From: Bacteroidota bacterium
Lineage (GTDB): Bacteria > Bacteroidota > Bacteroidia > Bacteroidales > CG2-30-32-10
Reading direction: 5' to 3'
Assembly (NCBI GenBank): GCA_013377115.1
Contig: JACAAW010000002.1
Coordinates: 2,200 to 66,199, forward strand
Length of the DNA stretch: 64,000 bases
Under the pieces are notes generated by a model that saw only the letters and a program-made list of their open reading frames with translations, ran no database searches and was not told the DNA's origin. The position numbers and the translations under genes were made by a program. This document shows positions 48,124 through 62,503 of the stretch, piece after piece. Position 1 is the first letter of the stretch; the number at the start of each line of letters is the position of its first letter.

Positions 48124-50283
48124 TTATTTTTTTAATGAGAGCTCATTTAAAAGATATCCCGCTCCTGCATATTTTTCAATTAGGAATAAAATATATCGAA
48201 TATCAACATTGATGCACCTTTGAAGCTCTGGCTCAAAAGCGATAGAAACACTCGTGGCCTCCCAATTAATATCGAAAACTAATCCTACCAACTCTCCATT
48301 TCCATTCAAAACCGGAGCTCCAGAAGTTCCGCCTGTAATGTCATTATTTGTTATGAAGCAAACTTTAACTTTTCCATTTTCGACATAAGTCCCAAAATCA
48401 CGATCCCTGTATAATTCCTTAAGCTTTTCAGGAACATCGAAATCTTGTTTGTTTGGATCAACCCTATCCATTAATTCTTCAAAAGTTGTATAATAATTAT
48501 AGTTTTTCTGACCTGTCGGATTATAATCGGTAACTTTTCCATAAGAAAAACGCATCGTTGAATTTGCATCAGGATAAAAAGATTTTCCTTTTTCCAAACT
48601 CATTATTCCATCAATAAATAATCTTGTGTGTTCCTCTAAATCCAATTTTGCTTGATTAAATGGTTTCACAATTTCCTCATGTTTTTCAAAAAAAGAAACC
48701 ATGGTAGAATATGCAGGATCCTTTTCTATTTTTTTATAATCCGGTTTTATTAAAAACTCCAAAACCTTATCTTTGCTAGAAAAAATTGATTTTTCAAACA
48801 TGTCATTTACAAAGGATTTTACGTCACCCTTGAACTTTTTTTGAATTACTTCTTCATATATAAGTGGAAACTGATTTTTTGGAACATCCTCAAAATACAT
48901 TTCAAGCAATGCTAAAGTTATTTTCTTGTCTGTTTCTAAGTTATAACTTTTAAAATATTGTTTTGCAGCATAAATTAAATTCTGGGTTAAACTATTTATT
49001 TTTTCTTGGTTATCGCCAACTTTAAGTTCGTTATATAAATCTTTAAATTGAAATGCATAATTCAAGATCTCGCCACCTCTGTTTATTGCTTCTTTATAAT
49101 AAACTTCAGAAACATTATATTTTCTCAAATCCTCAAACGTTTTGGAAAGTTCATTCAAAACATTTCCATATATTTCTTTTCTTTTGGGAGTTTCATTTAC
49201 CCACTTCGTAAACGCTTCTTCCGTTTTTTGTTTTTTGTCTATTACATTTAGTTTTGTTAAAACTTGTATTTGACCAGTAAAATATTTCCAATAATTATCC
49301 GTGCGTGCATATTTCGATGCATACTTAATCCTTAAATCTTCGCTTTGATCCATATCTGCTTTCATTAAATCTAATTTCATTCCGCGAATTTTAACAATTG
49401 AAGGATTGGTCTGTTCTAACAACATTTTAACACCATAAGAGGACAAAAATCTATCTGTTGTTGCAGGATAACCCAAAACCATAGTAAAATCATCTTTTTT
49501 TATCCCTTTTGTAGAAATTGGAAGAAAATGCTTTGGAACATAGGGAATATTTTTCTTTGAATAATCTGCAGGCTTGCCATCAGGTGACATATATATTCTG
49601 AAAAATGCAAAATCACCAGCATGCCTTGGCCATCTCCAATTATCTGCTTGATCGGCAAAAGCCGCAATTGATTCTGGCGGAGCGCCCACTAATCTAACAT
49701 CTTTATATGTTTCATAAACAAACATATAATATTCATTTCCATTAAAAAAACTTTTAACAGTTGCTGTATAAGTGGTGTTAGATGTGGCCTCTGCAGCAAG
49801 CTTTGATGAGATTTCGTCAATTTTTGTTGATCTTTGGTTTTCCGTCATCCCTGGAGTAATCTGAGACAGAATTTTTTGAGTAATATCTTCCATCCTAATT
49901 AAAAAGGTAGCAGTTAACTTATCGTTTTTCAATTCTTCCATTTTGGACATCGCCCAAAATCCATTTTTTAAATAATCCTTTTCAACAGTGCTATGATTTT
50001 GAATAAAACCATAAGCACAATGATGATTTGTCATTAATAAGCCTTCTTTTGATATCATTTCCGCGGAGCAAAAACCATCATTTAGTGATACTATTGCATC
50101 CTTAATACTCGAATTGTTGACACTATAAATTTCTTCTGCAGTTAGTTTTAGCCCCATTTTCTGCATATCAACATAATTAAGGCGATTAATCAATAAGGGG
50201 AGCCACATTCCTTCATCTGCTTTTACAACATTTTGGTTAAAAAGAAATAAAGAAAACAATAGAAAAATACCTTTTTTTATCAT
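48124..50283 (-). CDS. S46 family dipeptidyl-peptidase, paralog 2
   Basis: Same length (719 aa) and collinear with paralog 1. Motifs: ADEGMWLP, MTNHHC, TGGTSGAPV. Confidence 0.9.
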   Translation of the reverse strand: MIKKGIFLLFSLFLFNQNVVKADEGMWLPLLINRLNYVDMQKMGLKLTAEEIYSVNNSSIKDAIVSLNDGFCSAEMISKEGLLMTNHHCAYGFIQNHSTVEKDYLKNGFWAMSKMEELKNDKLTATFLIRMEDITQKILSQITPGMTENQRSTKIDEISSKLAAEATSNTTYTATVKSFFNGNEYYMFVYETYKDVRLVGAPPESIAAFADQADNWRWPRHAGDFAFFRIYMSPDGKPADYSKKNIPYVPKHFLPISTKGIKKDDFTMVLGYPATTDRFLSSYGVKMLLEQTNPSIVKIRGMKLDLMKADMDQSEDLRIKYASKYARTDNYWKYFTGQIQVLTKLNVIDKKQKTEEAFTKWVNETPKRKEIYGNVLNELSKTFEDLRKYNVSEVYYKEAINRGGEILNYAFQFKDLYNELKVGDNQEKINSLTQNLIYAAKQYFKSYNLETDKKITLALLEMYFEDVPKNQFPLIYEEVIQKKFKGDVKSFVNDMFEKSIFSSKDKVLEFLIKPDYKKIEKDPAYSTMVSFFEKHEEIVKPFNQAKLDLEEHTRLFIDGIMSLEKGKSFYPDANSTMRFSYGKVTDYNPTGQKNYNYYTTFEELMDRVDPNKQDFDVPEKLKELYRDRDFGTYVENGKVKVCFITNNDITGGTSGAPVLNGNGELVGLVFDINWEATSVSIAFEPELQRCINVDIRYILFLIEKYAGAGYLLNELSLKK

Positions 50284-50374
50284 AGCAATAAGGGTTTAAT
50301 GACGAAAAATAAAGCAAAGATAATAAATATAATTTTAATTAATTTTTTTAACAAAAATTACATTTTTATGACAA

Positions 50375-50408
50375 CAAAAAAAGGTCACCAATTTGGTGAC
50401 CTTTTTTT
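50375..50408. terminator. bidirectional rho-independent terminator
   Basis: aggtcacc (50382..50389) pairs with ggtgacct (50395..50402). It is flanked by A7 and T7 runs and lies downstream of the 148-aa gene on the minus strand. Confidence 0.7.
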
Positions 50409-50425
50409 GTTTAATTTATGAGTGA

Positions 50426-50872
50426 CTATTTGTCTTTGTCACCACCAGCAAGCAATACAAAAGAATAAGTTCCGTTGCAGTCACCATCAGCAAACCATTC
50501 TTTAGTTTGTCCTGTTGTTATTGCATAAATGGTTTTGTAACCTGTTCTTGCTTTTACTGTTGTTTCTGCCCATGCATCTACTACGCCTTTTGATACGCCA
50601 TCAACATAAACTTCTACCATAAATCCCGTATTGTTTACAACATTGATGCTACAATCTTTTTTACCTCTGGTTTTTTGTTGATCTAAAGCTGGATCTTGTT
50701 GTGGGTTTTCATCTGTTGTTGGCATTTGCGCTTTAATATGTGGGTTTTGACCTCTTGTTTTTTCTACGCTTTTTGCTTTAATTTCTACTTTTTTTACATC
50801 TTGAGCGAATGTATTTGCTGTGAAGATTTGGCTTACAAAAGCCACCATTGCGATTACTAATAATTTTTTCAT
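50426..50872 (-). CDS. 148-aa secreted protein of unknown function, copy 1
   Basis: Signal peptide MKKLLVIAMVAFVSQIFTANTFAQD. A Pro/Gln-rich linker carries two KTRG motifs. The C-terminal beta-rich domain of about 75 aa has two Cys. I recognise no family. Confidence 0.8.
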   Translation of the reverse strand: MKKLLVIAMVAFVSQIFTANTFAQDVKKVEIKAKSVEKTRGQNPHIKAQMPTTDENPQQDPALDQQKTRGKKDCSINVVNNTGFMVEVYVDGVSKGVVDAWAETTVKARTGYKTIYAITTGQTKEWFADGDCNGTYSFVLLAGGDKDK

Positions 50873-50880
50873 TGTTTTGG
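50426..50880 (-). repeat. direct repeat, copy 1 (partner at 58294..58748)
   Basis: By eye this copy is identical to copy 2 except for about six substitutions clustered at the two ends of the CDS. Confidence 0.9.
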
Positions 50881-50935
50881 GATTTTGTTTGTTAATAATT
50901 TATTTTTTGTTTTAAATTTCCGTGATTTGAATATG

Positions 50936-50962
50936 AATAAAATAACTTTTTAAAAGGTAACC
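50936..50962 (-). promoter_or_regulatory. candidate ECF-type promoter motif GGTTACCTTTT-N8-ATTTTATT
   Basis: The minus strand reads GGTTACCTTTTAAAAAGTTATTTTATT, ending 63 nt upstream of the copy-1 ATG. The same motif with the same spacing occurs at 58791..58817 and 51219..51245. Confidence 0.4.
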
Positions 50963-51218
50963 GATAATTTTTATTTTTTTTTATTTGTTGCAAATTTAAT
51001 GTTAATTCCTTTCCAACAACCATTAATAAAACCAAAAATTAAAAAGTAACCAGGGAAAATGAAATTTGTTTACGTGGTTTTATTTTTTCTGTTGCAAAAA
51101 CCGTACAAAAAAATAAAGTATCTACTACTAAAAAATATTTTTTGTATTTTTGATTTTTAGTTTCAAATATCATTACAATATTGTATATAAGTTTTTTATT
51201 AAAAAGTTCTAAGAAGCT

Positions 51219-51245
51219 GGTTACCTTTTTATATTTAGATTTATA
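51219..51245 (+). promoter_or_regulatory. candidate autoregulated ECF promoter upstream of the sigma factor gene
   Basis: GGTTACCTTTTTATATTTAGATTTATA ends 12 nt before the ATG at 51258. No TAnnTTTG box is present here. Confidence 0.4.
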
Positions 51246-51257
51246 AATTCCCAACAA

Positions 51258-51836
51258 ATGCAAGAAGAGGAAAAAATCATTAATGATTTAAAAAATTGCA
51301 ACGAAGATGCGCTTCAGTATTTGTATGAAAATTACAGACAGCAGTTTATCAAGTGGGCGACATACAATTACCATATTGCAGTTGAAGAGGCTGAGGATAT
51401 TTATTCTGACACAATTATTGATGTTTATCAGAATATTAGAACAGAAAAATACGTAAAACAAAGTAATAGTTCTTTAAAATCTTATTTATTTGAAGTCGGG
51501 AAATATAAAATCCTAAATCTAATTAATAAAAAGAAGTTGAATGATGTTCACCATCAAAACATTTATCATTTAAATGTTGATAAGAGACAAGATTCTCCAG
51601 AAGTTAATCAGTTTAGTGAAGACTTAGCAATAAAAGTAAAAGAGTTAATGAACTTACTTGATGATAAATGTAAGGAGGTTCTCACTCTTTACTATTTTTA
51701 TAATCTTTCAATGGAAAAAATTGCTGAAAAAATGGATTTTAAAAACGACGACGTTTCAAAAAATAAGAAATTGAAATGTTTAAGAAGGCTCCAAGAGCTA
51801 ACTTTTGAACGTTATGAAAAAGCAGATTTTTTTTAA
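51258..51836 (+). CDS. ECF-type sigma-70 family RNA polymerase sigma factor
   Basis: 192 aa. A region-2-like segment (YENYRQQFIKWATYNYHIAVEEAEDIYSDTIIDVY) and a region-4 HTH (CKEVLTLYYFYNLSMEKIAEKMDFKNDDVSKNKKLKCLRRL) are present. No region 1 or 3 is visible. Confidence 0.85.
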   Translation: MQEEEKIINDLKNCNEDALQYLYENYRQQFIKWATYNYHIAVEEAEDIYSDTIIDVYQNIRTEKYVKQSNSSLKSYLFEVGKYKILNLINKKKLNDVHHQNIYHLNVDKRQDSPEVNQFSEDLAIKVKELMNLLDDKCKEVLTLYYFYNLSMEKIAEKMDFKNDDVSKNKKLKCLRRLQELTFERYEKADFF

Positions 51837-51854
51837 TAAATAAATCCAGAGATT

Positions 51855-52586
51855 ATGAATGATATAACTTATTTTGATGATTATTACCACAAGAGATTAA
51901 GTCCTGAAGAAAATTCAATCTTCGAAGAAAAGCTTGTTTCAGATTCTGAATTAAAAAGAGAATATGATATTTTTCTCAGTTTTGTAAGTGGGATCAATTT
52001 ATTTGAAAAAGAAAGACTCAAAGAATTATTTAAAGAAAAAAGAGACGAATCGCGATTTAAAATAAATCCTTATGTCAAAGCAAAATCCTTTAAAACATTC
52101 TATTTTGCGGCAGCAGCAAGTTTGATTATTCTTCTTATTCCTGGATATTTTCTTTATCAAAAATTAAATTCAAATCAAAAAATATATAACGAGTACGTTT
52201 ACCAAGATGGAGGGATTCCAGTATTAATGGGAGCCACAAACAATGTTGATTTTAATAAAGGGATGATCGAATACAAAGATCAAAAATTTGAAAAGGCGAT
52301 TGTTTATTTTAATCAGTTATTATCAACCAATCCAAATAACGACACCTTAAATTATTACGCAGGAAACTCTTATTTATATTCTGACAATTCAGAGGCCGCC
52401 ATCAGTTCGCTTTCAAAGGTTAACTCAAAGCAATCTGCATTTTATTATCCTGCAAAATATAACTTGGCACTGGCTTATATTAAAATTAAAGAAACTGATA
52501 AAGCTAAAGCCATCTTGGAAGACCTTTCTAAATCAAACGAACATTTTCTTTGTGAAAAGGCTAAAAAACTTCTTGAAGAATTATAG
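51855..52586 (+). CDS. single-pass membrane TPR protein, putative anti-sigma factor
   Basis: Lies 18 nt downstream of the sigma gene. A cytoplasmic N-terminus of about 80 aa is followed by one TM helix (FYFAAAASLIILLIPGYFLY), then an extracytoplasmic TPR region (KFEKAIVYFNQLL..., YNLALAYIKIKETDKA). The role is inferred from topology and position. Confidence 0.55.
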   Translation: MNDITYFDDYYHKRLSPEENSIFEEKLVSDSELKREYDIFLSFVSGINLFEKERLKELFKEKRDESRFKINPYVKAKSFKTFYFAAAASLIILLIPGYFLYQKLNSNQKIYNEYVYQDGGIPVLMGATNNVDFNKGMIEYKDQKFEKAIVYFNQLLSTNPNNDTLNYYAGNSYLYSDNSEAAISSLSKVNSKQSAFYYPAKYNLALAYIKIKETDKAKAILEDLSKSNEHFLCEKAKKLLEEL

Positions 52587-52587
52587 A

Positions 52588-54501
52588 TTATTGCTTTCGC
52601 ACCAAGTTTAATGAGTATCCAATAACAATTAGCAATAGAAAAATAATAATTCCAAGGTTAAACTTGCTATTATCTTCGAAAGCGTATGGACTTGGATCCC
52701 CACTAAAAACAAACCCTCCCCAAAAAAAAGGATTTGCCGTAGTTTCATTGGATTCTTTTAAATATTTGATTTTTGCTTTATGCAAAGCCTCATCTTTGTA
52801 ATGCCCAGCTAAAATTCCTTCATAAAAGTATTTTAAAAGCTTATTGGTTTCCTGTTCGTCAACCTCCCAAAGCGAATAAACAAGTGATGGGCATCCAGCA
52901 TAGCTAAAACCATGAGATAAACTCATTATGCCTTCGCATTTATTAAATTGTCCAATACCGGTTTGACAACTAGCCAAAACAACCAAAGAGGCTTTAAATT
53001 GCATATTGTATAAATCTGATGCCAGAAAAAACGGATTTTGTGTTTTTGATTTTTCAATATCCGAAAAAGCAATTTCTGTTTTCATCGGAAATTCGTCATT
53101 AACAATAGTGTGAGACGATATATGCAAAATATCAAATTTTATTGCTTCTTCCTTAAAATTATTAATTGATGCTTGCTCACGAATAAAAAAACCTCCTTCA
53201 AAAACTTTTTTAAGCTCAATTAAAAACTTCTCTGACCAGCGTTGTTCTGATAAATTCAAAAATACAGAATCTGTTAAACTGTTGCCTTTATAAAATGCTT
53301 TTAATTTAGAATCAAAAATTGGAGCAAATGCAGCAATTTTAGGGTTTTTATTATTGGACTTCAATGAAATATTTTCAAAAAGTATTGTTGCAGATGGGCT
53401 ATAGGAAAATTGATATTTATAAATTAAATAATCTAAAGACTTATAATTTGCTGAGGTTAATTTTTTATTTGTTGTTGTGAGACATTCGAAGGGAATATAT
53501 CCTAAAATTCCATCTGGAATTACAATCAATTTCTCTGTTGAGCTAAAGTACCGTTCTGTTGGCTTAATCAACGCTTCATAAAGGAGGAAAGAGGTTTTTT
53601 GATATTCATTAAAATTACTTTTTGTAATACTATTTACAAACGCTTTTAAATTTTCCTTGAATACAGAATCATTTGAAATCTTAATAAAACCATCCTTTTT
53701 CGTTCCAATAATAAAGCAATAAATTGAAGTCTCTGTGTAAAAATACTCTAAAAGAGTTGTATTTGAATTAAGCAATTTGCGTTTCACAATTTCAATGTTT
53801 GCAAAAAAACTCTTATGTTTAAGATTGTAATATTTAGGGTATTTATTTTGCATCATAAAATTCAGAGAATCTGTTTCTTGCTGCAAATAACTTAATTCCT
53901 TCTCATAAATGGCTATTTGCTTTAGATTCTGACGCTCTGGATCCTTTGCAATTTCATTATCTAAATTATTTTTACAAACAATAATTTTTGCTGAAAGGTC
54001 TTTTTCCTTTTCAAAAAGGTGAGAAGGAATTCCTGCACTGATTTTTACTTTGGCATTTTGCAATGACTCAATAAGCAATAAATTTTTGTTTTTTTCAGCG
54101 TATATGAAGGCTTTTTCCAGATATTCGGTTTTTTGGCCTTTCTGATAAAGGTCAAAAGCATTTGAAATTGCCTTTTCATAAATAGGGAAGATGAACCTTG
54201 AAAGCAATACTTTTGACCCAATATTTTTGTAATCTTTAATTATTGAATCAATTACTGCTATTGTTTTGCCAAATATTGTGAAAAGGAGTTCTGGATTTTT
54301 AGATTTTTCTAAAAGAGAAATTATTGAAAGGTAATGATTAAAGGAATTGAGATATTGTTTATCCTTTTTTAAGAATTCTGCAAATTTCAATTTACTCTCA
54401 ATATCTTCTTTACCTTGAGGATATAATACATTGCTTGCTCCAAAAGAAAAATCCTGGAGAAAAGCGATAAAAAAAACTAAAATGAAAAAAGTTTTTTTCA
54501 A
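52588..54501 (-). CDS. CHAT-domain protease with signal peptide, TPR-like helical N-region and C-terminal TM anchor
   Basis: The C-terminal third carries FDILHISSHT (His) and SLVVLASCQTG (Cys), followed by SLWEVDEQ and ANPFFWGGFVFSGDP, typical of CHAT. The final segment LGIIIFLLLIVIGYSL is hydrophobic. Confidence 0.88.
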   Translation of the reverse strand: MKKTFFILVFFIAFLQDFSFGASNVLYPQGKEDIESKLKFAEFLKKDKQYLNSFNHYLSIISLLEKSKNPELLFTIFGKTIAVIDSIIKDYKNIGSKVLLSRFIFPIYEKAISNAFDLYQKGQKTEYLEKAFIYAEKNKNLLLIESLQNAKVKISAGIPSHLFEKEKDLSAKIIVCKNNLDNEIAKDPERQNLKQIAIYEKELSYLQQETDSLNFMMQNKYPKYYNLKHKSFFANIEIVKRKLLNSNTTLLEYFYTETSIYCFIIGTKKDGFIKISNDSVFKENLKAFVNSITKSNFNEYQKTSFLLYEALIKPTERYFSSTEKLIVIPDGILGYIPFECLTTTNKKLTSANYKSLDYLIYKYQFSYSPSATILFENISLKSNNKNPKIAAFAPIFDSKLKAFYKGNSLTDSVFLNLSEQRWSEKFLIELKKVFEGGFFIREQASINNFKEEAIKFDILHISSHTIVNDEFPMKTEIAFSDIEKSKTQNPFFLASDLYNMQFKASLVVLASCQTGIGQFNKCEGIMSLSHGFSYAGCPSLVYSLWEVDEQETNKLLKYFYEGILAGHYKDEALHKAKIKYLKESNETTANPFFWGGFVFSGDPSPYAFEDNSKFNLGIIIFLLLIVIGYSLNLVRKQ

Positions 54502-54516
54502 AAAAATGAAAATTAA

Positions 54517-55218
54517 TTAATTTGTCATCAAAAGTAAATCATTTTTACTTTTCCCGACATTTTTAATTTCAATTTTATAATTTCCTGTGGTTTTTGGTGT
54601 AAAAGAAATATAGCAATTATCCGGTGTGCTGGGATTTGTTTTTATTATTGTTCCATTTTGATCATAAACAGTAAGGTTAAGAGGGGCACTTCCTTCACCC
54701 ATTACAAAAACCTCAGCTATTTCTTTAGCATTAAAAACTGTTTGCAATGCAATATTACTATTAGAATATAGGGTTATTTCTTTTACCAAAGGACTGTATT
54801 TTCTCCCTCTATTTTTTGCAACTTGATCTGAATGGGATTCTTTTTCAATTTTATACGCTAAATTAATGATTGAAGAATCATTGTCGGCGAGTTTTATTGC
54901 ATCAGCAATAAGTGAATTGATGTTTATTGAAACTTTTTTTCTTTTTGGATTCTGCGAAGAAGTATCGGCCTTACCAATAATTTCAATATTTGTTAATTTA
55001 AATTCACCTTTTATGGGGTTATCTATTAATGTTTGAGCTGCTGAAAGTAAATAAATTGGTTTATCATTTTCATAACCAAACCGAGCCAATTGCATGGCAA
55101 AAGAAACAGCAGTCATTTCTTGACTGGGCTTTTGTCCTCGTTCTTTGTTTTCCTGAGAATAGGCAGATTCCATTCCTTGAACTGACAACAAAATAAAAAT
55201 GAAAATAAAATTTCTCAT
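54517..55218 (-). CDS. 233-aa secreted protein, paralog of the 213-aa protein (unknown function)
   Basis: Signal peptide MRNFIFIFILLSVQG. An N-terminal helical part (QLARFGYENDKPIYLLSAAQTL) precedes a C-terminal beta-sandwich-like part ending GNYKIEIKNVGKSKNDLLLMTN. Confidence 0.7.
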   Translation of the reverse strand: MRNFIFIFILLSVQGMESAYSQENKERGQKPSQEMTAVSFAMQLARFGYENDKPIYLLSAAQTLIDNPIKGEFKLTNIEIIGKADTSSQNPKRKKVSININSLIADAIKLADNDSSIINLAYKIEKESHSDQVAKNRGRKYSPLVKEITLYSNSNIALQTVFNAKEIAEVFVMGEGSAPLNLTVYDQNGTIIKTNPSTPDNCYISFTPKTTGNYKIEIKNVGKSKNDLLLMTN

Positions 55219-55233
55219 GAAAATAAAATTTAA

Positions 55234-55266
55234 AAAAATACGGCTTAAAGCTTAAGCCGTATTTTT
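55234..55266 (-). terminator. palindromic hairpin between the 213-aa and 233-aa genes (terminator or attenuator)
   Basis: cggcttaa (55241..55248) pairs with ttaagccg (55252..55259), with A/T runs on both sides. Confidence 0.55.
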
Positions 55267-55290
55267 AATTATTAACAATTTTCCCAAATG

Positions 55291-55932
55291 TTAGTTAGTA
55301 ATGAAAACGCATTTCATATCATCAGTTGAAGCGTTTTTTAAAGTAATTTTATAAGATTCTGCTTTTGAAGGAGTCCAAGTAAAATAACCTTTGTCGCTAC
55401 TTTCAGATTTAACAATTTCTCCTTTTGAGTTTTCAACAATAATTTCTGGAATAGCTGCAGCACTTGATTTTACAGAAATTTCTGCTTTAGAATTAGCAAC
55501 ATAAGTGATTTGATAAACTTTTACTGCACCAGCCATAATTCTGCAATTATATGCTAAAAGTTCTGACATTGATCCTCTTGTTTTTTCTGGTTTTTGACCT
55601 TCAACTTTAGTAATCATAGCTAAAACTGCTTGATCTCCATTAGCTAATTTTTTTGCATCTTCCAATAATTGTTTTGCACTAAATTCAGCATTTTCTTCTC
55701 CAGCAACTTTCTTTTCATTTGCAGGAGTAGCGTTTAAAATAGATGCTGCAGTAATTAATGCCAAAGATGACTTGTTTTGATAACCATAATCTGCGAAATC
55801 TGCTGCTGCTGTTAAATTTGAAATTTGTTTACTTGGGGTGTTTTTTGTTGCTTGAGCGAAAACACTAGTTGTAGTAAAAATACATACAACTGCAATAATC
55901 ATTAGGTTTGTGATTTTTTTCATTTTTTTCAT
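55291..55932 (-). CDS. 213-aa secreted protein, paralog of the 233-aa protein (unknown function)
   Basis: Signal peptide ...IAVVCIFTTTSVFAQA. DFADYGYQNKSSLALITAASIL aligns with the 233-aa protein. The linker has one KTRG. The C-terminus ESYKITLKNASTDDMKCVFITN parallels its paralog. Confidence 0.7.
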   Translation of the reverse strand: MKKMKKITNLMIIAVVCIFTTTSVFAQATKNTPSKQISNLTAAADFADYGYQNKSSLALITAASILNATPANEKKVAGEENAEFSAKQLLEDAKKLANGDQAVLAMITKVEGQKPEKTRGSMSELLAYNCRIMAGAVKVYQITYVANSKAEISVKSSAAAIPEIIVENSKGEIVKSESSDKGYFTWTPSKAESYKITLKNASTDDMKCVFITN

Positions 55933-55976
55933 TTTTTAATAATTAATACTTGTTTTTAATTGTTTATGTTATTGAA

Positions 55977-58247
55977 TTATTTAGGTTTACTTGCAATCAT
56001 AACTCTGTTAATTGACCAACTTGCAGGTGTTAATAATTGTCCTCGAGTTGCGGCACCAACATTTAACAATCCTGATAAGCCACCTTTATCAATTCCTCTT
56101 GTTCTAACTCCTGTCATTTCTAAAGCTGAAGGATTTGGTAGGGGTTCATCGGTTGTAAGCATTATATAAGAGTCCATTCCAAAAGGTTCGCTGACCATTA
56201 ATTTTGTTCTTCCTAAAGCCATTTCTTTTGGAACATCCCCTTCAATAATTCTAGGGAATTGGTTTTCAACACTTCCTTGTCTTGGGTAAAGCAGGCAAGT
56301 TGTTCCTTTGCTGTCTATTACGAATACATAGATGTAGCGTTTTGAACCATCCCAGTAAGAAATATTTTCTTTATCAGAAACAAGCATTAAAGAAAGAGTG
56401 TCTCCTTTATATACTGTTCCATTTGTTAATAAATTCTTGCTAGAACCTTTTTTAATTGCTAAATTAAAAGGAAATGCGCCATCATCAGGTGGATTTGATA
56501 AAGTTAACCATGCTTTTATTTTAGCGAGTTTTAATGTGAAATCTTGCAAACTATCTGAAGTAAGATTTAATTTATTTTCTTCAGCGTTAAGCTTAATAAA
56601 ATCAGTTCTAACTGGTAATGTATTGGTTCTATTGGTGTCCAAAACAGTTACCTGAGGAATAACATAAGCATATTCTATTTGATTGTTTTCCCATCTGCCA
56701 GTTAAATAATATTGAGCATCAGTGCCACTTTGAGAAGCCTCTACAGCTGTATTAATTTTGTAACCTTCCATTATTTGGTCTTTTAAGACAGTTGTTGGTG
56801 GCAGGCTAACGAAAAGTTTATCACCATTCTTTAATTTGCTACTAACCGCTTTTTCTGTTGGAGATTTTCCTAAAGAAACATTTTTTCCATCAGGGAAACC
56901 TAACATCCATTCAGTTCCAGTATAAAAAACAGTATGAGTTGGAGCTTCGGCACTTGGATCAGAAATCCATTTTATACTTTTATTGTTTTTTAAGGTGCTT
57001 AATTGTTTTGCAATTGAAGCCAAATCATTGTAATTATAAGTGGTTTTTGGAACGTAGACTTTTAGGTTTGGACCATTTGCAGTAGACCAAGAAGCCAATT
57101 CAAACATATCCCCAGGTTTAACGTTGCCGATATCACCTTTTACCAATTGGCCAACACAACTATTAACTCCCTTCATTTGAGTAATTTTAATTTTGGCAAT
57201 GGTATCTTTATTAACCATTTTAATAAGCTCGCAATTAATATTTAATCCCGAAGCATATCCTCCTTGAAAAACAATATTGTCTTTATCCTGAGGTTTTATA
57301 ACTGGAACTAAGGTTTTTCCAGAAATAGATCCTTGAGGATATCCAAAAATGGTTTTATTTTTACGATCATCATTTCCAGCCAAAACTGGTTCTTGAGTTT
57401 TTCCGTTGTATTTCATAATAGCACGGATGCTATTAAAAATATCCGAAGTTTTTGCATTTACAGAGGCCGATTTTAATGTTTGCAATAGTGCTACAGTGAA
57501 AGCTCCGTGAGGTGAGCCGTTTTCGTCTTTTTGCTCGCTGGCAAATTCAAAATCTTGGGCTGCAGAAATAATTAAAACGCCATTATTTTCGGGTTTTGGG
57601 GAAATGCTTCCATCTTTTGCATCGGAAGGATCTGGTATCATCCAGCGCAATTTTGGTGTATCATCAGATAATTTACCTCTACCAATTGAACCACTATGAC
57701 AGCTGTCATAAATTACAGTCAAAATAACGCCTTTATCAGCAAAACTTTGAAAAATTTTTGCTAATTCTTTATCTCTAATATCTTTTGTTCCATTCCAAAC
57801 ATCGGCAGGAACCATTGTTTCGTCTTCTTTATCAGACTCGTCAGAAAGTGAATTTTTTACTTGAGATCCATGACCAGCATAATAAATTACAACCATGTCG
57901 CCTTTTTTAGAACTGTTGAGAAGTTTTTCAAACTCCCCTAAAATTCTTTCTCTTGAACATTCTTGGTTCATAATCATTGCAGTGTTTTCTTCTTTAAACT
58001 CATAACGAGACATCAGAACTTCTTTAACTGCTTTTGCATCGTTAACACAACCATCAAGATCCATCCATTCTCCCTTAGAAATACCCCTGCTATTTGAAAC
58101 CATTGCTACTGTTTCATTAGCAGGAGGATTATAAATATCAATCCCAATAAACAAGGCTCTTTTTGTTTGTGCTTTAATATTGTTTGTTGTAAAAATATTA
58201 AGGGCAATTACAAATCCTATTATTAATAATCTATTGAATTTTGTCAT
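55977..58247 (-). CDS. exported peptidase C14 (caspase-fold) protein with large beta-rich C-terminal region (DUF4384-like end)
   Basis: I start it at MTKFNRLLIIGFVIALNIFTTNNIKAQ (ATG at 58247), because the longer track ORF overlaps copy 2 of the 148-aa gene. Motifs: KRALFIGIDIY, LDGCVNDA, MVVIYYAGHGS (His), VIYDSCHSGS (Cys). The C-terminal YIYVFVIDSKGTTCLLYP resembles DUF4384. Confidence 0.88.
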   Translation of the reverse strand: MTKFNRLLIIGFVIALNIFTTNNIKAQTKRALFIGIDIYNPPANETVAMVSNSRGISKGEWMDLDGCVNDAKAVKEVLMSRYEFKEENTAMIMNQECSRERILGEFEKLLNSSKKGDMVVIYYAGHGSQVKNSLSDESDKEDETMVPADVWNGTKDIRDKELAKIFQSFADKGVILTVIYDSCHSGSIGRGKLSDDTPKLRWMIPDPSDAKDGSISPKPENNGVLIISAAQDFEFASEQKDENGSPHGAFTVALLQTLKSASVNAKTSDIFNSIRAIMKYNGKTQEPVLAGNDDRKNKTIFGYPQGSISGKTLVPVIKPQDKDNIVFQGGYASGLNINCELIKMVNKDTIAKIKITQMKGVNSCVGQLVKGDIGNVKPGDMFELASWSTANGPNLKVYVPKTTYNYNDLASIAKQLSTLKNNKSIKWISDPSAEAPTHTVFYTGTEWMLGFPDGKNVSLGKSPTEKAVSSKLKNGDKLFVSLPPTTVLKDQIMEGYKINTAVEASQSGTDAQYYLTGRWENNQIEYAYVIPQVTVLDTNRTNTLPVRTDFIKLNAEENKLNLTSDSLQDFTLKLAKIKAWLTLSNPPDDGAFPFNLAIKKGSSKNLLTNGTVYKGDTLSLMLVSDKENISYWDGSKRYIYVFVIDSKGTTCLLYPRQGSVENQFPRIIEGDVPKEMALGRTKLMVSEPFGMDSYIMLTTDEPLPNPSALEMTGVRTRGIDKGGLSGLLNVGAATRGQLLTPASWSINRVMIASKPK

Positions 58248-58293
58248 ATGGCTTGAATATTGAAATTTTATTCTTTTCTTTTTTTTATTTCTA

Positions 58294-58740
58294 TTATTTA
58301 TCTTTATCGCCACCAGCAAGTAATACAAAAGAATAAGTTCCGTTGCAGTCACCATCAGCAAACCATTCTTTAGTTTGTCCTGTTGTTATTGCATAAATGG
58401 TTTTGTAACCTGTTCTTGCTTTTACTGTTGTTTCTGCCCATGCATCTACTACGCCTTTTGATACGCCATCAACATAAACTTCTACCATAAATCCCGTATT
58501 GTTTACAACATTGATGCTACAATCTTTTTTACCTCTGGTTTTTTGTTGATCTAAAGCTGGATCTTGTTGTGGGTTTTCATCTGTTGTTGGCATTTGCGCT
58601 TTAATATGTGGGTTTTGACCTCTTGTTTTTTCTACGCTTTTTGCTTTAATTTCTACTTTTTTTACATCTTGAGCGAATGTATTTGCTGTGAAGATTTGAC
58701 TTATAAAAGCCACCATTGCGATTACTAATAATTTTTTCAT
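58294..58740 (-). CDS. 148-aa secreted protein of unknown function, copy 2 (first gene of the caspase operon)
   Basis: Its protein differs from copy 1 by a single residue (V12I). The gene lies 46 nt upstream of the C14 gene. Confidence 0.8.
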   Translation of the reverse strand: MKKLLVIAMVAFISQIFTANTFAQDVKKVEIKAKSVEKTRGQNPHIKAQMPTTDENPQQDPALDQQKTRGKKDCSINVVNNTGFMVEVYVDGVSKGVVDAWAETTVKARTGYKTIYAITTGQTKEWFADGDCNGTYSFVLLAGGDKDK

Positions 58741-58748
58741 TGTTTTTG
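58294..58748 (-). repeat. direct repeat, copy 2 (partner at 50426..50880)
   Basis: Offset of 7868 nt, same orientation. See the findings. Confidence 0.9.
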
Positions 58749-58790
58749 GTTTTATTGTTAATAATAATTTTTTTCGTTGTTATGTGGGTT

Positions 58791-58817
58791 AATAAAATCG
58801 AAAATAAAAAGGTAACC
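58791..58817 (-). promoter_or_regulatory. candidate ECF-type promoter motif GGTTACCTTTT-N8-ATTTTATT
   Basis: The minus strand reads GGTTACCTTTTTATTTTCGATTTTATT, ending 50 nt upstream of the copy-2 ATG. Confidence 0.4.
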
Positions 58818-59082
58818 GAAAAAAGATATTTTTTTTATTTATTTTTTATTTTCAGTTTTTCCTCCTCCTGGAAAAGTGATTTTTGTAAGAACATCGAAAT
58901 ATTTCTATTTGTTTTCTTTTTTAATGTTAATCTGTATGAAATTTTCGATAAAATTAATAATAATATTGTATTAAACAAAAAGGTTTGTCTAAAATTTTAA
59001 ATGGAAAACGGATTCGTATTTGAAAATTTTTCTGTGTTAGAAAAAAAGTGACTTTTTTCTTCTGACTGTTTTAGATAATCTA

Positions 59083-59124: not shown

Positions 59125-61095
59125 ATGAAACAAAAATTCGACCCAGGTAAGAATTATAGAGAGTCTAAAAAAGCCATAGGTTATATTACTCGTAAAAAAG
59201 CTACTCAAAAAACGTATGATGATATAGGTTTCATGTCTGGACTTGAAATTCATCAGCAACTTTTAACAAAAGAGAAGCTTTTTTGTCGTTGTCCTGCTGG
59301 AGTTTATCAAAAACCAAATCAATATGATGCAGAAGTTGTTCGTCATATGCGTCCTACGCTAAGCGAACTTGGGGAATATGATGGAACAGCATTGATGGAA
59401 TTCAAAACAAAAAAGGAAATTGTTTATAGAATAAAAAATGAAACGACTTGTACTTACGAAGTAGATGATACTCCACCATTTCCAGTGAATAGAGAGGCTT
59501 TACAAATTGCTATCGAAATCTCATTATTATCAAAACTAAGTATTGTTGGCGAAGTTCACATTACCAGAAAACAATATTTAGATGGAAGTATCCCAACAGG
59601 TTTCCAAAGAACTGCAATTATTGGTGTTGAAGGAGAAATTCCACTTAAGAATAAAAAAGTTCGATTGATACAATTGAGCATGGAAGAAGATTCTTGTAGA
59701 GAGATTTCTGATATCGGACATACAAGAATTTATAGAACAGATAGACTTGGAATGCCTTTAATTGAAACCGTTACTTATCCAGACATGACAAATCCTGATG
59801 AAGTAATGGAAGCAGCCAATTATATCCGTTTTTTAAATAGAAGTACAGGAAAAGTTCGTACCGGTATTGGCGCAGGAAGAGAAGATGTAAACGTAAGCTG
59901 CAAAGGTGGAACCCGAGTTGAAATAAAAGGTGTTGCACACAATAAATGGATTCCTGAACTTACCCATAACGAATGTTTCAGACAATGGGCCTTGCTTCAT
60001 GTAGCAAAACTTCTAAAACAAAAAGAAAAAGATTCAAAAAAATGGAATCTTTCTTATGAATATCTTGATTTCGATTCATGTAATTTTACTCATGAACCAA
60101 TCCTTGATGCCAAATCAAAAAAATACAAATTGGTTGGTGTGAATTTGCCAAATTTTCAAGGAATTTTATCTCATTTTACCCAACCTGGAAAAATGTTTGT
60201 AAATGAAATTAGCGAAAGATTAAAAGTAATTGCTTGTTTGGAATTACCAAATATGACTCATTCAGAAGAGTTTGATTTCGTGATAGCTGACGATTGTTTT
60301 GCTAAAATAAAAAAGGTTTTAAAATCAGGCGAAAATGATGCACAAATAGTTTTCTGGGGACCAGAAGACGATGTAAAAACAGCAATAGAAACCATCGAAG
60401 AACGTTGCAGAATGGCTTTTGATGGCGTTCCAAATGAAACCAGAAAAGCATTGGTAAATGGAATTAGTATTTTCGAAAGAGTATTACCTGGGGCAGACAG
60501 AATGTACCCTGATACCGATTCTAAGCCAATTCCATTGGAAGATTCCTTTATCGAAGAATTAAGAAAAACGGTTCCTTCGGATATTATTGACAGATACAAT
60601 CAATTAAAGAAATGGGGAATTCCAGAAGATACTTATACTTTCATTTTTAAGAAGAATTTGTACCCACTTATTGAACGTATCATCACAGACCTCAAGCAAA
60701 ATCCTGTTTTTGTAGGAACATTCTTTGGTCATAAATTAAAATATGTTGAAGGTCATTACACCCCATCAACAGGTTTTACATATGAAAAAATTTACGATCT
60801 ATTTAAAGAAGTTCAATCGAAAAAAATAGACGTTGCTTTAATGAAATTACTTTTACCAGTGGTTTATCAACATCCAAAAATGGATTTTGATTCCGTTTTA
60901 ACAAGCATTAATTTCAAAAAAATTTCAAAAGATAAAATTGTTTCAAACATTTCCTTTTTGAAAGAGAAGTTCGACAAAATCAGAATTTCAAAAAAAGGTC
61001 ACGTTGAATCAAAATGGATAATGGGCGAATTAAGAAAAGTTGCCATTGGAAATATTTCATTGTCAGAACTAAAAACCCAAATCGAAAAAAAATAA
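59125..61095 (+). CDS. gatE: Glu-tRNA(Gln) amidotransferase subunit E, archaeal GatDE type
   Basis: GLEIHQQLLTKEKLFCRCP, RHMRPTLSELGEYDGTALMEF, YLDGSIPTGFQRTAIIG, RTDRLGMPLIETVTYPDM and GIGAGREDVNVSCKGGTRVEIKGV are present. At 656 aa it is much longer than GatB. An inserted domain and a helical tail are present, and gatD is adjacent. Confidence 0.85.
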   Translation: MKQKFDPGKNYRESKKAIGYITRKKATQKTYDDIGFMSGLEIHQQLLTKEKLFCRCPAGVYQKPNQYDAEVVRHMRPTLSELGEYDGTALMEFKTKKEIVYRIKNETTCTYEVDDTPPFPVNREALQIAIEISLLSKLSIVGEVHITRKQYLDGSIPTGFQRTAIIGVEGEIPLKNKKVRLIQLSMEEDSCREISDIGHTRIYRTDRLGMPLIETVTYPDMTNPDEVMEAANYIRFLNRSTGKVRTGIGAGREDVNVSCKGGTRVEIKGVAHNKWIPELTHNECFRQWALLHVAKLLKQKEKDSKKWNLSYEYLDFDSCNFTHEPILDAKSKKYKLVGVNLPNFQGILSHFTQPGKMFVNEISERLKVIACLELPNMTHSEEFDFVIADDCFAKIKKVLKSGENDAQIVFWGPEDDVKTAIETIEERCRMAFDGVPNETRKALVNGISIFERVLPGADRMYPDTDSKPIPLEDSFIEELRKTVPSDIIDRYNQLKKWGIPEDTYTFIFKKNLYPLIERIITDLKQNPVFVGTFFGHKLKYVEGHYTPSTGFTYEKIYDLFKEVQSKKIDVALMKLLLPVVYQHPKMDFDSVLTSINFKKISKDKIVSNISFLKEKFDKIRISKKGHVESKWIMGELRKVAIGNISLSELKTQIEKK

Positions 61096-61117
61096 ATTAC
61101 TGTTAAAAATAATAACA

Positions 61118-62503
61118 ATGAGCGAAGATTTTTTTCAAGGATATAAAGGTGCAGCCTTAGAAGTATTAAAAAAATATTCAGTTAGAGTATGGGGGCAAAC
61201 CGTAGTTCATACCACCAGAGGTACTTTTACGGGGACCGTATTGCCTAGATCTGAAAACGACGACGACAAGCATATTGTTGTGAAGATTGCAACAGGATAC
61301 AATATTGGTGTTGATGTTGGAAACATCACTGAAATGAGTGAAACTGGCTATAAGAAAGCCAACTATCAGATTCCAGAAAAGGAATTTCCTTATACAAAAG
61401 GATTGCCAAAAGTAAAATTAATAGGAACTGGAGGAACAATTGCTTCCAGACTTGATTATAGGACAGGTGCTGTAATTCCAGCTTTTTCTCCTGGTGAACT
61501 TTATGGTGCGGTTCCTGAATTGGCAGATATTTGTAATTTAACTACTGAAAAAGTTTTCGCTGTTTTTAGTGAAAATATGGGTCCTGAGCAATACATTAAA
61601 TTGGCAATTCAAATTGGGAAAGAAATTGAAAATGGTATCGAAGGAATCGTGATTGGCCACGGAACAGACACTTTACATTATACTGCTGCTGCTTTAACAT
61701 TTATGGTTCAAAATTCTCCAATTCCAATCGTTTTGGTTGGATCTCAAAGATCTTCTGACCGCCCTTCTTCTGATGCTGCATTAAATTTAATGCATGCTTG
61801 CACTGCAGCCGGACATGGAAATATCGCAGAAGTCATGGTTTGTATGTTTGGACCAACATCTGACGAATATGGTTTTTTACACCGCGGAACAAGAGTTAGA
61901 AAAATGCATTCCTCTTATCGTTCAACCTTTAGAACAATTGGAGATACACCATTAGCAACAGTTACAAGAAAAGGAGTAAATCCAATAAAACCAGAATACA
62001 ATCATCGCAGAAAAGACAAAAATGTAATTATCAAACCATATTTCGAAGAAAAAATTGGAATGATTTATTATTATACCAATATGCAGCCAGACATGATTGA
62101 TTCTATGGTTGACAATGGTTATAAAGGAATTATAATTATTGGAACTGGTTTGGGCCACGTAAACAAACCTCTTTATCCTGCAATTGAAAGAGCAACCAAA
62201 AAGGGAGTTGCAATTTATATGACGGTACAAACTATTTGGGGTTATGTTCACATGTTTGTATACGATACAGGTCGCGATTTAATGGCAAAAGGTGTAATTC
62301 CACTAGAAAATATGTTACCTGAAGTTGCTTATATTAAATTAGGCTGGGCAATGGGACAAACAAGCGATTTGGAAGAAGTAAAGAAAATCATGCTGACGCC
62401 AATAAACGATGAAATTACGAGACGCGAACCATATAATGGATACCTAGTTTATCAAGGAGGAGTTCCCGAAATTGAAGGTTTTATTAAAGAGCATCATAAA
62501 TAA
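61118..62503 (+). CDS. gatD: Glu-tRNA(Gln) amidotransferase subunit D (asparaginase-family glutaminase), archaeal GatDE type
   Basis: An N-terminal domain of about 95 aa (HIVVKIATGYNIGVDV) is followed by GTGGTIASRLDYRTGAV, HGTDTLHYTAAALTFM, VGSQRSSDRPSSDAALNL and RVRKMHSS. Confidence 0.88.
   Translation: MSEDFFQGYKGAALEVLKKYSVRVWGQTVVHTTRGTFTGTVLPRSENDDDKHIVVKIATGYNIGVDVGNITEMSETGYKKANYQIPEKEFPYTKGLPKVKLIGTGGTIASRLDYRTGAVIPAFSPGELYGAVPELADICNLTTEKVFAVFSENMGPEQYIKLAIQIGKEIENGIEGIVIGHGTDTLHYTAAALTFMVQNSPIPIVLVGSQRSSDRPSSDAALNLMHACTAAGHGNIAEVMVCMFGPTSDEYGFLHRGTRVRKMHSSYRSTFRTIGDTPLATVTRKGVNPIKPEYNHRRKDKNVIIKPYFEEKIGMIYYYTNMQPDMIDSMVDNGYKGIIIIGTGLGHVNKPLYPAIERATKKGVAIYMTVQTIWGYVHMFVYDTGRDLMAKGVIPLENMLPEVAYIKLGWAMGQTSDLEEVKKIMLTPINDEITRREPYNGYLVYQGGVPEIEGFIKEHHK

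Follow-up and report, generated by a model that had tools for sequence, protein, structure and literature searches.

DdvA of Myxococcus xanthus is a single-pass anti-sigma factor whose periplasmic part, of approximately 900 residues, consists of a TPR-CHAT module that bears a His-Cys dyad. In the model put forward by its authors, signal-induced autoproteolysis by CHAT provides the site-1 cut, after which cleavage by RseP frees DdvS, a sigma factor of the extracytoplasmic function (ECF) type that controls an island for CBASS and CRISPR defence; DdvA-like proteins have been reported only from Myxococcota and one Comamonas (PMC11506125). In the type III-E system, the craspase complex of Cas7-11 and the TPR-CHAT protein Csx29 cleaves Csx30 and so controls the ECF sigma factor RpoE (PMC10028731). 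Among the ECF groups, the actinobacterial ECF54 is the only one reported with CHAT proteins in its gene context (PMC8999054), and CHAT goes unmentioned in the main text of the ECF re-classification paper. Here we describe an island of eight genes in which an ECF sigma gene and the gene for a TPR protein adjoin genes for two exported proteases, one of the CHAT type and one of the caspase-like C14 type. It lies in a stretch of 64,000 nt from contig JACAAW010000002.1 of a Bacteroidota bacterium; this whole stretch is called the window, and positions are counted within it.

We interpret the island as a module for envelope signalling, built on an ECF sigma/anti-sigma pair, to which a cassette of exported caspase-fold proteases has been added. 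An earlier note, made from the letters alone (the original prediction), had described a sigma gene and a TPR protein gene converging on a minus-strand array, with a second gene for a 148-aa protein outside the array at 50426. The list of open reading frames (ORFs) reproduced this layout; each of the eight genes was found where it had been placed, and so were the hairpin, all four catalytic motifs and the signals for export. The same note had held that the known CHAT and caspase systems are all cytoplasmic, a statement that DdvA contradicts, as a published periplasmic TPR-CHAT anti-sigma factor with an ECF partner. The single-pass TPR protein, here called the anti-sigma candidate, is encoded by a gene that begins 18 nt 3' of the sigma gene. 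The longest ORF of the C14 gene opens at an upstream TTG; the plausible start is that of MTKFN at 58247, which gives 756 aa. The features of the island are listed below, where numbers with the prefix L denote other loci.

50373-50411, no strand: terminator-like hairpin after copy A (18-bp stem, then a T run)
50426-50872, minus strand: gene for a 148-aa secreted protein, copy A (447 nt; ORF list)
50937-50962, minus strand: predicted ECF promoter of copy A (exact GGTTACC-N14-TTTAT; equivalents in L032 and L037)
51026-51051, minus strand: one-mismatch motif GGTTACT-N14-TTTAT, candidate tandem promoter of copy A, 89 nt further upstream
51219-51244, plus strand: predicted autoregulatory ECF promoter of the sigma gene (exact; ends 13 nt before the start codon)
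51258-51836, plus strand: gene for the ECF-type sigma factor, 192 aa (TIGR02937 match)
51855-52586, plus strand: gene for the single-pass TPR anti-sigma candidate, 243 aa (TPR matches and topology)
52588-54501, minus strand: gene for the exported CHAT protease, 637 aa (Pfam CHAT)
54517-55218, minus strand: gene for a 233-aa secreted protein, paralog of the 213-aa protein
55234-55266, minus strand: terminator-like hairpin between the 213-aa and 233-aa genes
55291-55932, minus strand: gene for a 213-aa secreted protein (ORF list and structure model)
55977-58247, minus strand: gene for the exported metacaspase-like C14 protease, 756 aa (Peptidase_C14)
58294-58740, minus strand: gene for a 148-aa secreted protein, copy B, at the head of the C14 operon
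58792-58817, minus strand: predicted ECF promoter of the copy B/C14/213 operon (exact; kept in L004, L006 and L034, variant in L038)

The small secreted proteins have a K-x-R-G motif in common, which lies in flexible regions in both the 148-aa and the 213/233-aa families. We propose a joint mechanism, to which we give an even chance, in which CHAT is the site-1 protease for the anti-sigma factor, the sigma factor drives an exported metacaspase-like protease, and K-x-R-G marks the substrates of the latter. An envelope signal would lead CHAT to cut the periplasmic part of the anti-sigma candidate, in the site-1 role proposed for DdvA, and an intramembrane protease would then complete the release of the sigma factor. 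The freed sigma factor would activate its own gene and the operons led by the 148-aa genes. The 148-aa and 213/233-aa proteins would in turn be cut by the exported C14 protease behind the Arg of K-x-R-G, which would free or activate their beta-sandwich domains. Candidates for the physiological output are remodelling of the envelope, the processing of surface proteins and defence against phages.

Conservation of the island and its promoter motif

The same gene set was found in at least four other metagenomic genomes. In L004/L005, GatE was followed in turn by 148, C14-TPR, a pair of type IX secretion cargo proteins, a WD40 protein that is exported, one protein of 230 aa and CHAT; next came the anti-sigma and sigma genes, which converge on CHAT, and lastly a further 148 copy. 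In L007 and L037, CHAT likewise converged on the anti-sigma/sigma pair, with the 230-aa gene preceding CHAT in L037, and a divergent operon comprised three 148-family genes, a C14-DUF4384 gene, one or two genes for 21x-aa proteins and one for a WD40 protein. Protein identities to the window were 73-75% for C14, 64-68% for the closest copy of the 148-aa protein, 60% for the sigma factor, 46-48% for the 213-aa protein, 43-44% for CHAT, 42% for the 233-aa protein and 40-43% for the anti-sigma candidate. The window looks like a reduced form of a larger island with two ECF-driven protease operons.

Since the genes stay together despite real sequence divergence, chance juxtaposition is excluded. The original prediction had named a failure of the genes to co-occur in related genomes as a sign of such juxtaposition, and they do recur together there. 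The view that unrelated genes merely came to lie side by side is thus already refuted by synteny and motif, and we leave it practically no probability: the gene set is kept in several genomes at only 40-75% protein identity, a conserved promoter motif is common to its operons, and the pairings recur in remote lineages.

That motif, GGTTACC-N14-WTTAT, occurred at three exact sites in the 64-kb window, against 0.00 in shuffled sequence, and all the sites were correctly oriented, upstream of the sigma gene or of a 148-aa gene. The site before the sigma gene was also present in L005, L032 and L037, with a two-mismatch variant in L007, and that before the first 148-family gene was present in L004, L005, L007, L032, L033, L034 and L037, with a variant in L038. 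The tandem pair of motifs upstream of copy A recurred in L032 and L037. In related loci the register of the motif was kept, although the surrounding intergenic DNA had diverged. We infer from this distribution that GGTTACC-N14-WTTAT is the autoregulated promoter of this ECF sigma factor, and the predicted regulon would consist of the sigma/anti-sigma operon plus each operon led by a 148-family gene, which in the window means copy A alone and copy B/C14/213. A scan with the sigma-70 consensus, which is not informative for Bacteroidota, gave sites no commoner than those in shuffled sequence. The conserved synteny and the promoter motif shared by the sigma gene and both 148-aa genes are in agreement with the ECF-linked extracytoplasmic proteolytic module that had been proposed originally.

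The sigma factor, the anti-sigma candidate and the CHAT protease

Profile searches, which the original prediction had suggested as a check, placed CHAT, Peptidase_C14 and the ECF sigma factor above the respective cutoffs and gave a weak match for DUF4384. The sigma factor scored 66.1 bits against TIGR02937 (sigma70-ECF; cutoff, 42.9), showed weak Pfam matches to Sigma70_r2, r4_2 and ECF, and has only the r2 and r4 regions in its 192 aa; by these profile criteria it can be assigned to the ECF type (sigma-70 group 4). It stayed below the cutoff of TIGR02985, the Bacteroidetes FecI-like subfamily (57 versus 126).

The anti-sigma candidate is composed of an N-terminal cytoplasmic domain, a transmembrane segment at residues 82-100 and a periplasmic TPR domain at approximately residues 125-243, with Pfam TPR matches at residues 131-229. 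Its N-terminal domain gave a weak match, under the cutoff, to the anti-sigma model NF047528 (E = 2e-5), and residues 1-80 contain one His and zero Cys. The anti-sigma proteins of the triad loci aligned (all but the Roseivirgaceae and the second Winogradskyella loci) matched end to end, those of distant loci included. Gene position and conservation across the phylum thus support a predicted anti-sigma role for the 243-aa protein.

CHAT matched PF12770 with an E value of 1e-48 (166.7 bits; Pfam cutoff, 24) and comprises a signal peptide, a helical N-terminal region, the CHAT domain and a membrane anchor. It carries LHISSHT and LASCQTG, as had been noted from the sequence, and its dyad (His464/Cys512) and C-terminal anchor were unchanged in four homologs. 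A sequence search of the PDB with CHAT, both as a single sequence and as a profile, gave zero matches even at E = 10.

Export was judged with a hydropathy script and by eye. In all five nonregulatory proteins, a K/R stretch at the N terminus led into a hydrophobic one, in agreement with the signal peptides claimed for them originally, and Gln stood at +1 of the predicted cleavage site in four of the five, which fits the Bacteroidetes Q-rule of Gln at that position (PMC5837995). The transmembrane anchor claimed for CHAT was also recovered by hand, as a hydrophobic helix at the C-terminal end (residues 616-634) that is followed by an RKQ tail. Given this helix and the signal peptide, the bulk of CHAT should face the periplasm, making it a predicted inner-membrane-anchored, periplasm-facing protease. 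Two other destinations were considered for the island proteins and rejected: lipoprotein identity because no lipobox was present, and type IX secretion cargo because the Pfam search gave no C-terminal Por_Secre_tail sorting domain. The latter domain does occur on neighbouring genes in related loci.

A scan of species-representative genomes with an alignment of CHAT yielded 15 loci across Bacteroidota, at 28-36% identity. The triad of sigma factor, anti-sigma candidate and CHAT was found in Kordia, two Winogradskyella, Roseivirga thermotolerans, a Roseivirgaceae metagenome-assembled genome (MAG) and a Saprospiraceae MAG. The CHAT homolog of these distant triads is a TPR-CHAT protein of 940-1050 aa, which starts with a signal peptide and ends in an anchor wherever the ends were readable (the tail of the Roseivirgaceae copy was masked), and its gene lies tail to tail with that of a TPR anti-sigma protein (approximately 210-260 aa), followed by the ECF sigma gene. 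In seven loci (the window, L005, L007, L016, L018, L026 and L029), the CHAT gene and the anti-sigma gene abut or overlap at their 3' ends, and a gap of approximately 200 nt separates them in L025 and probably also in L028. The far side of the sigma gene varies; the genes there include type IX secretion cargo (Kordia and Winogradskyella) and an S8 subtilase (Roseivirga). These arrangements show the triad to be a conserved unit across distant Bacteroidota, with a CHAT protein predicted to face the periplasm.

The convergent 3' ends overlap by at most 18 nt (window, 52586-52588; L005, 8264-8279; L007, 4717-4732). Ends that abut or overlap leave no room for a terminator, so convergent transcription may itself be regulatory. 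In L020 (2348-11566; a Cyclobacteriaceae MAG), a sigma/anti-sigma pair diverges from four small ORFs of 126, 141, 224 and 186 aa, of which the first two, at least, look secreted, and these are followed by the gene for a PKD/DUF7619 protein and then by a TPR-CHAT-anchor gene. This layout is similar to that of the window, with small proteins unrelated to those of the window.

The original prediction had suggested that the TPR ectodomain may be a partner or substrate of CHAT. The conserved triad favors this, as does DdvA, in which anti-sigma, TPR and CHAT parts are fused (PMC11506125), a classic kind of evidence that separate parts work together; cleavage of the one by the other remains a predicted step. 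A different reading takes CHAT and C14 as mere regulated outputs, serving nutrition, surface-protein maturation or interbacterial interactions, and leaves the anti-sigma candidate to be controlled otherwise, for example by a generic site-1 protease or by ligand binding to its TPRs. The window CHAT is indeed the last gene of an array behind an ECF promoter, related islands and distant triads are rich in signal-peptide-bearing type IX cargo, WD40 propellers and M28 and S8 peptidases, and exported clan-CD proteases are widely used in Bacteroidota. However, CHAT is fixed tail to tail with the anti-sigma gene, often with overlap, across several classes in which the other neighbours vary, it is anchored in the inner membrane instead of being released, and the fusion in DdvA physically ties CHAT to an anti-sigma factor (PMC11506125). 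On balance, we hold this reading to be somewhat unlikely.

The C14 protease, the small secreted proteins and their relatives

For its part, the C14 protein matched Peptidase_C14 with an E value of 1e-24 (88 bits; cutoff, 21.4) and DUF4384 weakly (Pfam), the combination of C14 and DUF4384 being a known orthocaspase architecture (PMC7475262, PMC8283722). The remaining two motifs of the original prediction, YYAGHGS and YDSCHSGS, are both present in it, and the dyad (His126/Cys183) was unchanged in orthologs. Its closest PDB sequences were the metacaspases AtMC9, AtMC4, Yca1 and TbMCA2 (E = 1e-14 to 1e-9), and its GCVND (D70) and YDSCHSG (D181) motifs aligned with the same motifs of AtMC4 and AtMC9. 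We take the Asp residues of GCVND and DSCHSG to line an S1 pocket that selects Arg or Lys, as in the TbMCA2 and AtMC4 structures. These metacaspase-type motifs, together with the cleavage after basic residues by prokaryotic orthocaspases (PMC6426788), make a C14 cut after the Arg of K-x-R-G a reasonable prediction. Invariant VRTRGIDKGG and AATRGQLL were found close to the C terminus of C14 itself, whose long C-terminal region is conserved over approximately 450 aa. To our knowledge, the natural substrates of bacterial C14 enzymes are largely unknown.

With a threshold of E <= 1e-3, an exhaustive HMMER search assigned 203 cluster representatives to the 148 family, and with E <= 1e-10 it assigned 70; they are mostly secreted proteins of 125-150 aa. 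The motif K-T-R-G-x-N-P-x-I-K was near-invariant in the family and was kept in remote members. Many members, remote ones among them, carry another K-x-R-G directly ahead of the first Cys in the beta domain. The structure model of the 148-aa protein was poor (predicted local distance difference test score [pLDDT], 53) and suggests a disordered arm at residues 17-71 followed by a small beta domain of approximately 70 aa that contains two invariant Cys; in copy A the arm holds K-T-R-G-x-N-P-x-I-K as well as a second K-T-R-G. The family profile also matched the giant proteins P0068, P0085 and P0094 (1,200-1,900 aa, with InlB B-repeat/Flg_new_2 units); the InlB B-repeat matches hint at a distant kinship with the 148-aa beta domain, which we regard as a weak lead.

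Copies A and B differ at 7 of 447 nt (98.4% identity) and by one amino acid, and their identity collapses just beyond the coding region, where the promoter motif is the short element that both still have upstream. Similarly, the two 148 copies at L004 1067-1498 and L005 10001-10432 encode one and the same protein, 68% identical to its window orthologs. Near-identical copies at operon heads in two lineages suggest ongoing gene conversion, and the 148 copies may act as recombination points at which cassettes are reshuffled.

The 213-aa and 233-aa proteins proved to be paralogs (BLASTP, 2e-15; alignments), so the island encodes two families of small proteins instead of the three kinds counted originally. 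A word-index homology search gave 12 proteins for the 213/233 family, by a method that under-counted the 148 family (14 relatives versus the 203 representatives found by HMMER). The 233-aa type is the subtype that lies directly upstream of CHAT genes, a pairing repeated in L005, L015 and L037. The 213-aa protein was modelled with a pLDDT of 78.9 and a predicted template modelling score of 0.74 in three parts: a domain of four helices (residues 35-111), a loop whose pLDDT was < 50 and an eight-stranded sandwich (residues 126-212). The R-G dipeptide, unchanged in 15 members of the 213/233 family in the alignment, falls as R119-G120 in this low-pLDDT loop, between two confidently modelled domains. 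Foldseek related the sandwich to GOLD and PPC (pre-peptidase C-terminal/collagen-binding) domains, with a target TM-score of approximately 0.7, and one of its fold matches was PliG, a periplasmic lysozyme inhibitor. A search of PHROGs gave no match for the small proteins. TRG occurred 5 times in the 1,350 aa of island secreted proteins, against 2 in the 16,326 aa encoded by the remaining ORFs of the window.

Members of the 213/233 family stand directly beside genes for CHAT (window, L005, L015 and L037), C14 (window, L007 and L013) or an M28 peptidase (L010). In the last case (L010, 10001-12907), the gene for the 233-type protein is followed by the M28 peptidase gene where CHAT would be, and a different ECF sigma gene adjoins; this extends the pairings of the family to at least three protease families. 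Such adjacency would suit protease inhibitors or chaperones, guardians of the staphostatin or ecotin type, whose R-G loop would serve as a reactive or bait loop and keep the exported caspase-fold proteases inactive until needed. An R-G in an exposed flexible loop between folded domains, as modelled, would correspond to the geometry of a standard-mechanism inhibitor, PliG is among the beta-sandwich fold matches, and the two to four copies of 148-family genes fit a stoichiometric partner. Nevertheless, we consider this role unlikely: there was no sequence or fold match to a known protease-inhibitor family, the best folds being binding domains of the generic GOLD and PPC kinds; a long disordered arm, such as the one that holds the motif of the 148-aa protein, would be expected of a substrate or pro-peptide more than of an inhibitor; and the invariant TRG sites of C14 itself suggest processing there. 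The original prediction had offered substrates, inhibitors or pro-effectors as roles for the small proteins. The conserved K-x-R-G in flexible loops and the S1-pocket motifs of C14 lend support to that range of roles.

A 148-family protein, P0004, was also found on the 362-kb contig of a T4-like jumbo phage in IMG/VR (IMGVR_UViG_3300045970_000794; L001/L031, 9954-10426), where genes nearby encode a portal of the T4 type, a prohead protease, the major head protein and homing endonucleases. It is 65-68% identical, has its own signal peptide, and its gene is preceded by an exact GGTTACC-N14-TTTAT. In P0004 the first K-T-R-G is replaced by R-E-A-W, while the N-P-x-I-K after it and a second R-T-R-G are retained. 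This single instance would suit a phage tapping or subverting the pathway of its host, and a phage-borne homolog with the host promoter motif hints at phage-host conflict over that pathway. A second homolog, P0013, sits among genes typical of mobile elements.

Could the island then be an envelope-level anti-phage defence, in which sigma factor, anti-sigma candidate and CHAT sense phage at the envelope and induce the C14 cassette as effector, with phages countering by a 148-aa homolog that lacks K-T-R-G? This is compatible with the joint mechanism. The regulon of DdvA/DdvS is a phage-defence island (PMC11506125), pairings of CHAT and ECF sigma factors recur in type III CRISPR accessory modules (PMC10028731), and both P0004, with its signal peptide, promoter motif and R-E-A-W, and P0013 point in the same direction. 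On the other side, PADLOC recognised no known defence system, giving only a generic caspase match for C14 and a marginal one for the anti-sigma candidate (E = 0.004), with none for CHAT, the sigma factor or the small proteins and no CRISPR-related match among the island proteins. The genes beside the island (S46 peptidase, GatDE) are not known defence genes, no 148-family homolog was found in 50,697 GenBank phage records, and phages, of which P0004 is the one clear instance, carry host genes for other reasons too. At other triad loci, moreover, one finds type IX secretion cargo and a subtilase as outputs instead of defence genes. A defence function thus appears unlikely to us.

A bolder form, a periplasmic phage-sensing caspase-fold cascade whose output arm is the island, with the K-x-R-G proteins as pro-proteins, and to which jumbo phages answer with a copy of its first regulon protein that lacks the first K-T-R-G and stands behind the host's ECF promoter motif, seems distinctly improbable. 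If it were true, the cascade would be an extracytoplasmic counterpart of cytoplasmic caspase/gasdermin immunity, and the phage 148 homolog would be the first natural anti-system protein for such a cascade. No gasdermin match was obtained for the island proteins in Pfam, NCBIfam or PADLOC, and neither a STAND nor an NTPase match was seen in the island, in keeping with the lack of pore-forming and NTPase components stated originally.

The exported C14 protease and the 148 family together form a second module, beside the triad as the first. All three remote 148 members with usable context adjoined genes for signal-peptide-bearing Peptidase_C14 proteins, namely a C14-WD40 fusion (L039), two C14 genes with one CHAT gene (L040) and a C14-DUF4384 gene (L043). 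A local profile search of the distant triad loci L016-L030 gave no member of the 148 or 213/233 families, and the whole island as one indivisible unit was rejected on that ground. The original claim of a self-contained module was right in that the module is genuine; "self-contained" was too strong, because sigma factor, anti-sigma candidate and CHAT occur with other outputs, and the pair of C14 and 148 occurs without the sigma factor. Since the modules also occur apart, the clade of the window has apparently placed the second under the control of the first. The recurrent pairing of exported C14 with the 148 family, with its T-R-G-x-N-P-x-I-K and K-x-R-G motifs, provides concrete candidate substrates and cleavage sites.

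WD40 and C14 regions are joined in exported single polypeptides at L022 4334-7777 (an Aureispira MAG) and L039 1670-5737, the former identified only by a tblastn match (E = 7e-5) and a DACHSG motif. One of the two adjoins a TPR-CHAT-anchor gene and the other lies approximately 2 kb from a 148-family gene, and through these polypeptides the C14 protease is connected with the WD40 proteins that related islands export. Exported WD40 proteins of approximately 1,090-1,130 aa (L005, 2271-5543; L007, 11613-14993; L010, 6690-9950) have a common C-terminal tail, TKGAQKPTSR[KR]DNL.

Several points weigh against the joint mechanism of CHAT as site-1 protease and K-x-R-G as substrate mark. The anti-sigma candidate lacks any R-G dipeptide, so CHAT, if it cuts this protein, uses another kind of site. 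Approximately half of the CHAT homolog loci, mainly in Bacteroidales and some Saprospiraceae, have no adjacent sigma/anti-sigma pair. In the window, no promoter of their own was recognised for the 233-aa and CHAT genes, which lie behind a hairpin downstream of the C14 operon, and CHAT could be an output instead of the trigger. The promoter motif could bind another regulator. The tally of TRG was made only after the motif had been noticed, and K-x-R-G could instead serve TPR or WD40 domains as a binding epitope or form the reactive loop of an inhibitor.

The island is flanked by an S46 peptidase gene, from which the hairpin at 50373-50411 divides copy A, and by the genes for GatD and GatE. The latter (59125-62503) encode an archaeal-type Glu-tRNA(Gln) amidotransferase in a Bacteroidota genome, both above the NCBIfam equivalog cutoffs, and the gatE/gatD pair lies directly beside the island also in the relatives L006, L034 and L038. 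The window contains two Peptidase_S46 (DPP7/DPP11-like) paralogs of 719 aa and 65% identity (43449-45608 and 48124-50283), with the gene for a PD40-repeat/OmpA-domain protein (46030-48093) between them. A mobile island was considered and rejected, as there was neither an integrase nor a GC shift. Rfam and tRNA scans of the 64-kb window gave no match.

Comparison with known systems

Craspase resembles the island in coupling a TPR-CHAT protease to an ECF-type sigma factor, in its case through cleavage of a sigma-binding partner. In contrast, craspase is cytoplasmic, RNA guided and associated with Cas7-11, whereas the proteases of the island all carry export signals and no Cas7-11, Csx30/Csx31 or CRISPR-Cas gene adjoins them. 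With the metacaspases and orthocaspases, the island C14 has the His-Cys dyad and the GCxND and DSCHSG motifs in common (PMC6426788). It differs from them in its signal peptide, in its conserved C-terminal region of approximately 450 aa, in its position behind an ECF-promoter-like motif and in its pairing with a dedicated family of small secreted proteins.

The gasdermin/caspase-like and NTPase-coupled systems likewise place genes for clan-CD proteases beside those for small, possibly cleavage-activated proteins, but the island has no gasdermin, STAND or NTPase sensor, and its components are exported, not cytoplasmic. A single-pass anti-sigma factor, an extracytoplasmic first cut and an autoregulated ECF sigma factor, as proposed for the island, are features of the RseA/DegS/RseP, RsiW/PrsW and RsiV systems. 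Unlike these, the island has as its candidate site-1 protease a membrane-anchored CHAT protein that is genetically locked to the anti-sigma gene.

The closest parallel is DdvA. In both systems an ECF sigma gene stands beside the gene for a single-pass anti-sigma factor (in the island, a candidate) with periplasmic TPRs, an ECF-linked CHAT protein with a His-Cys dyad looks into the periplasm from a tether in the inner membrane, as predicted for the island, and CHAT is proposed to be the signal-activated protease that initiates anti-sigma proteolysis. The two CHAT proteins are likened here by architecture, not by sequence-level comparison. In the island, however, the anti-sigma candidate (243 aa) and CHAT (637 aa) are split into separate convergent genes, whereas DdvA is one polypeptide; the anti-sigma candidate has only a short TPR domain, and CHAT has its own signal peptide and C-terminal anchor. 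The cytoplasmic domain of the anti-sigma candidate lacks a zinc motif of the HxxxCxxC type (CHCC). Finally, the island belongs to Bacteroidota, and its predicted regulon consists of an exported C14 protease and small secreted proteins, not of CBASS and CRISPR-Cas.

A periplasmic CHAT tied to an ECF sigma factor is thus already known (DdvA/DdvS, 2024), and this precedent reduces the novelty of the island. What appears to be new is the split triad, widespread in Bacteroidota and apparently undescribed; a literature search that did not include the ECF Hub supplements found no published description of it. By analogy, the Bacteroidota triad looks like a split form of DdvA, which suggests that the same principle is common in Bacteroidota, beyond the Myxococcota and the one Comamonas. 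Since some carriers of the triad are cultured, such as Roseivirga thermotolerans and Winogradskyella, the site-1 role proposed for CHAT is testable in them.

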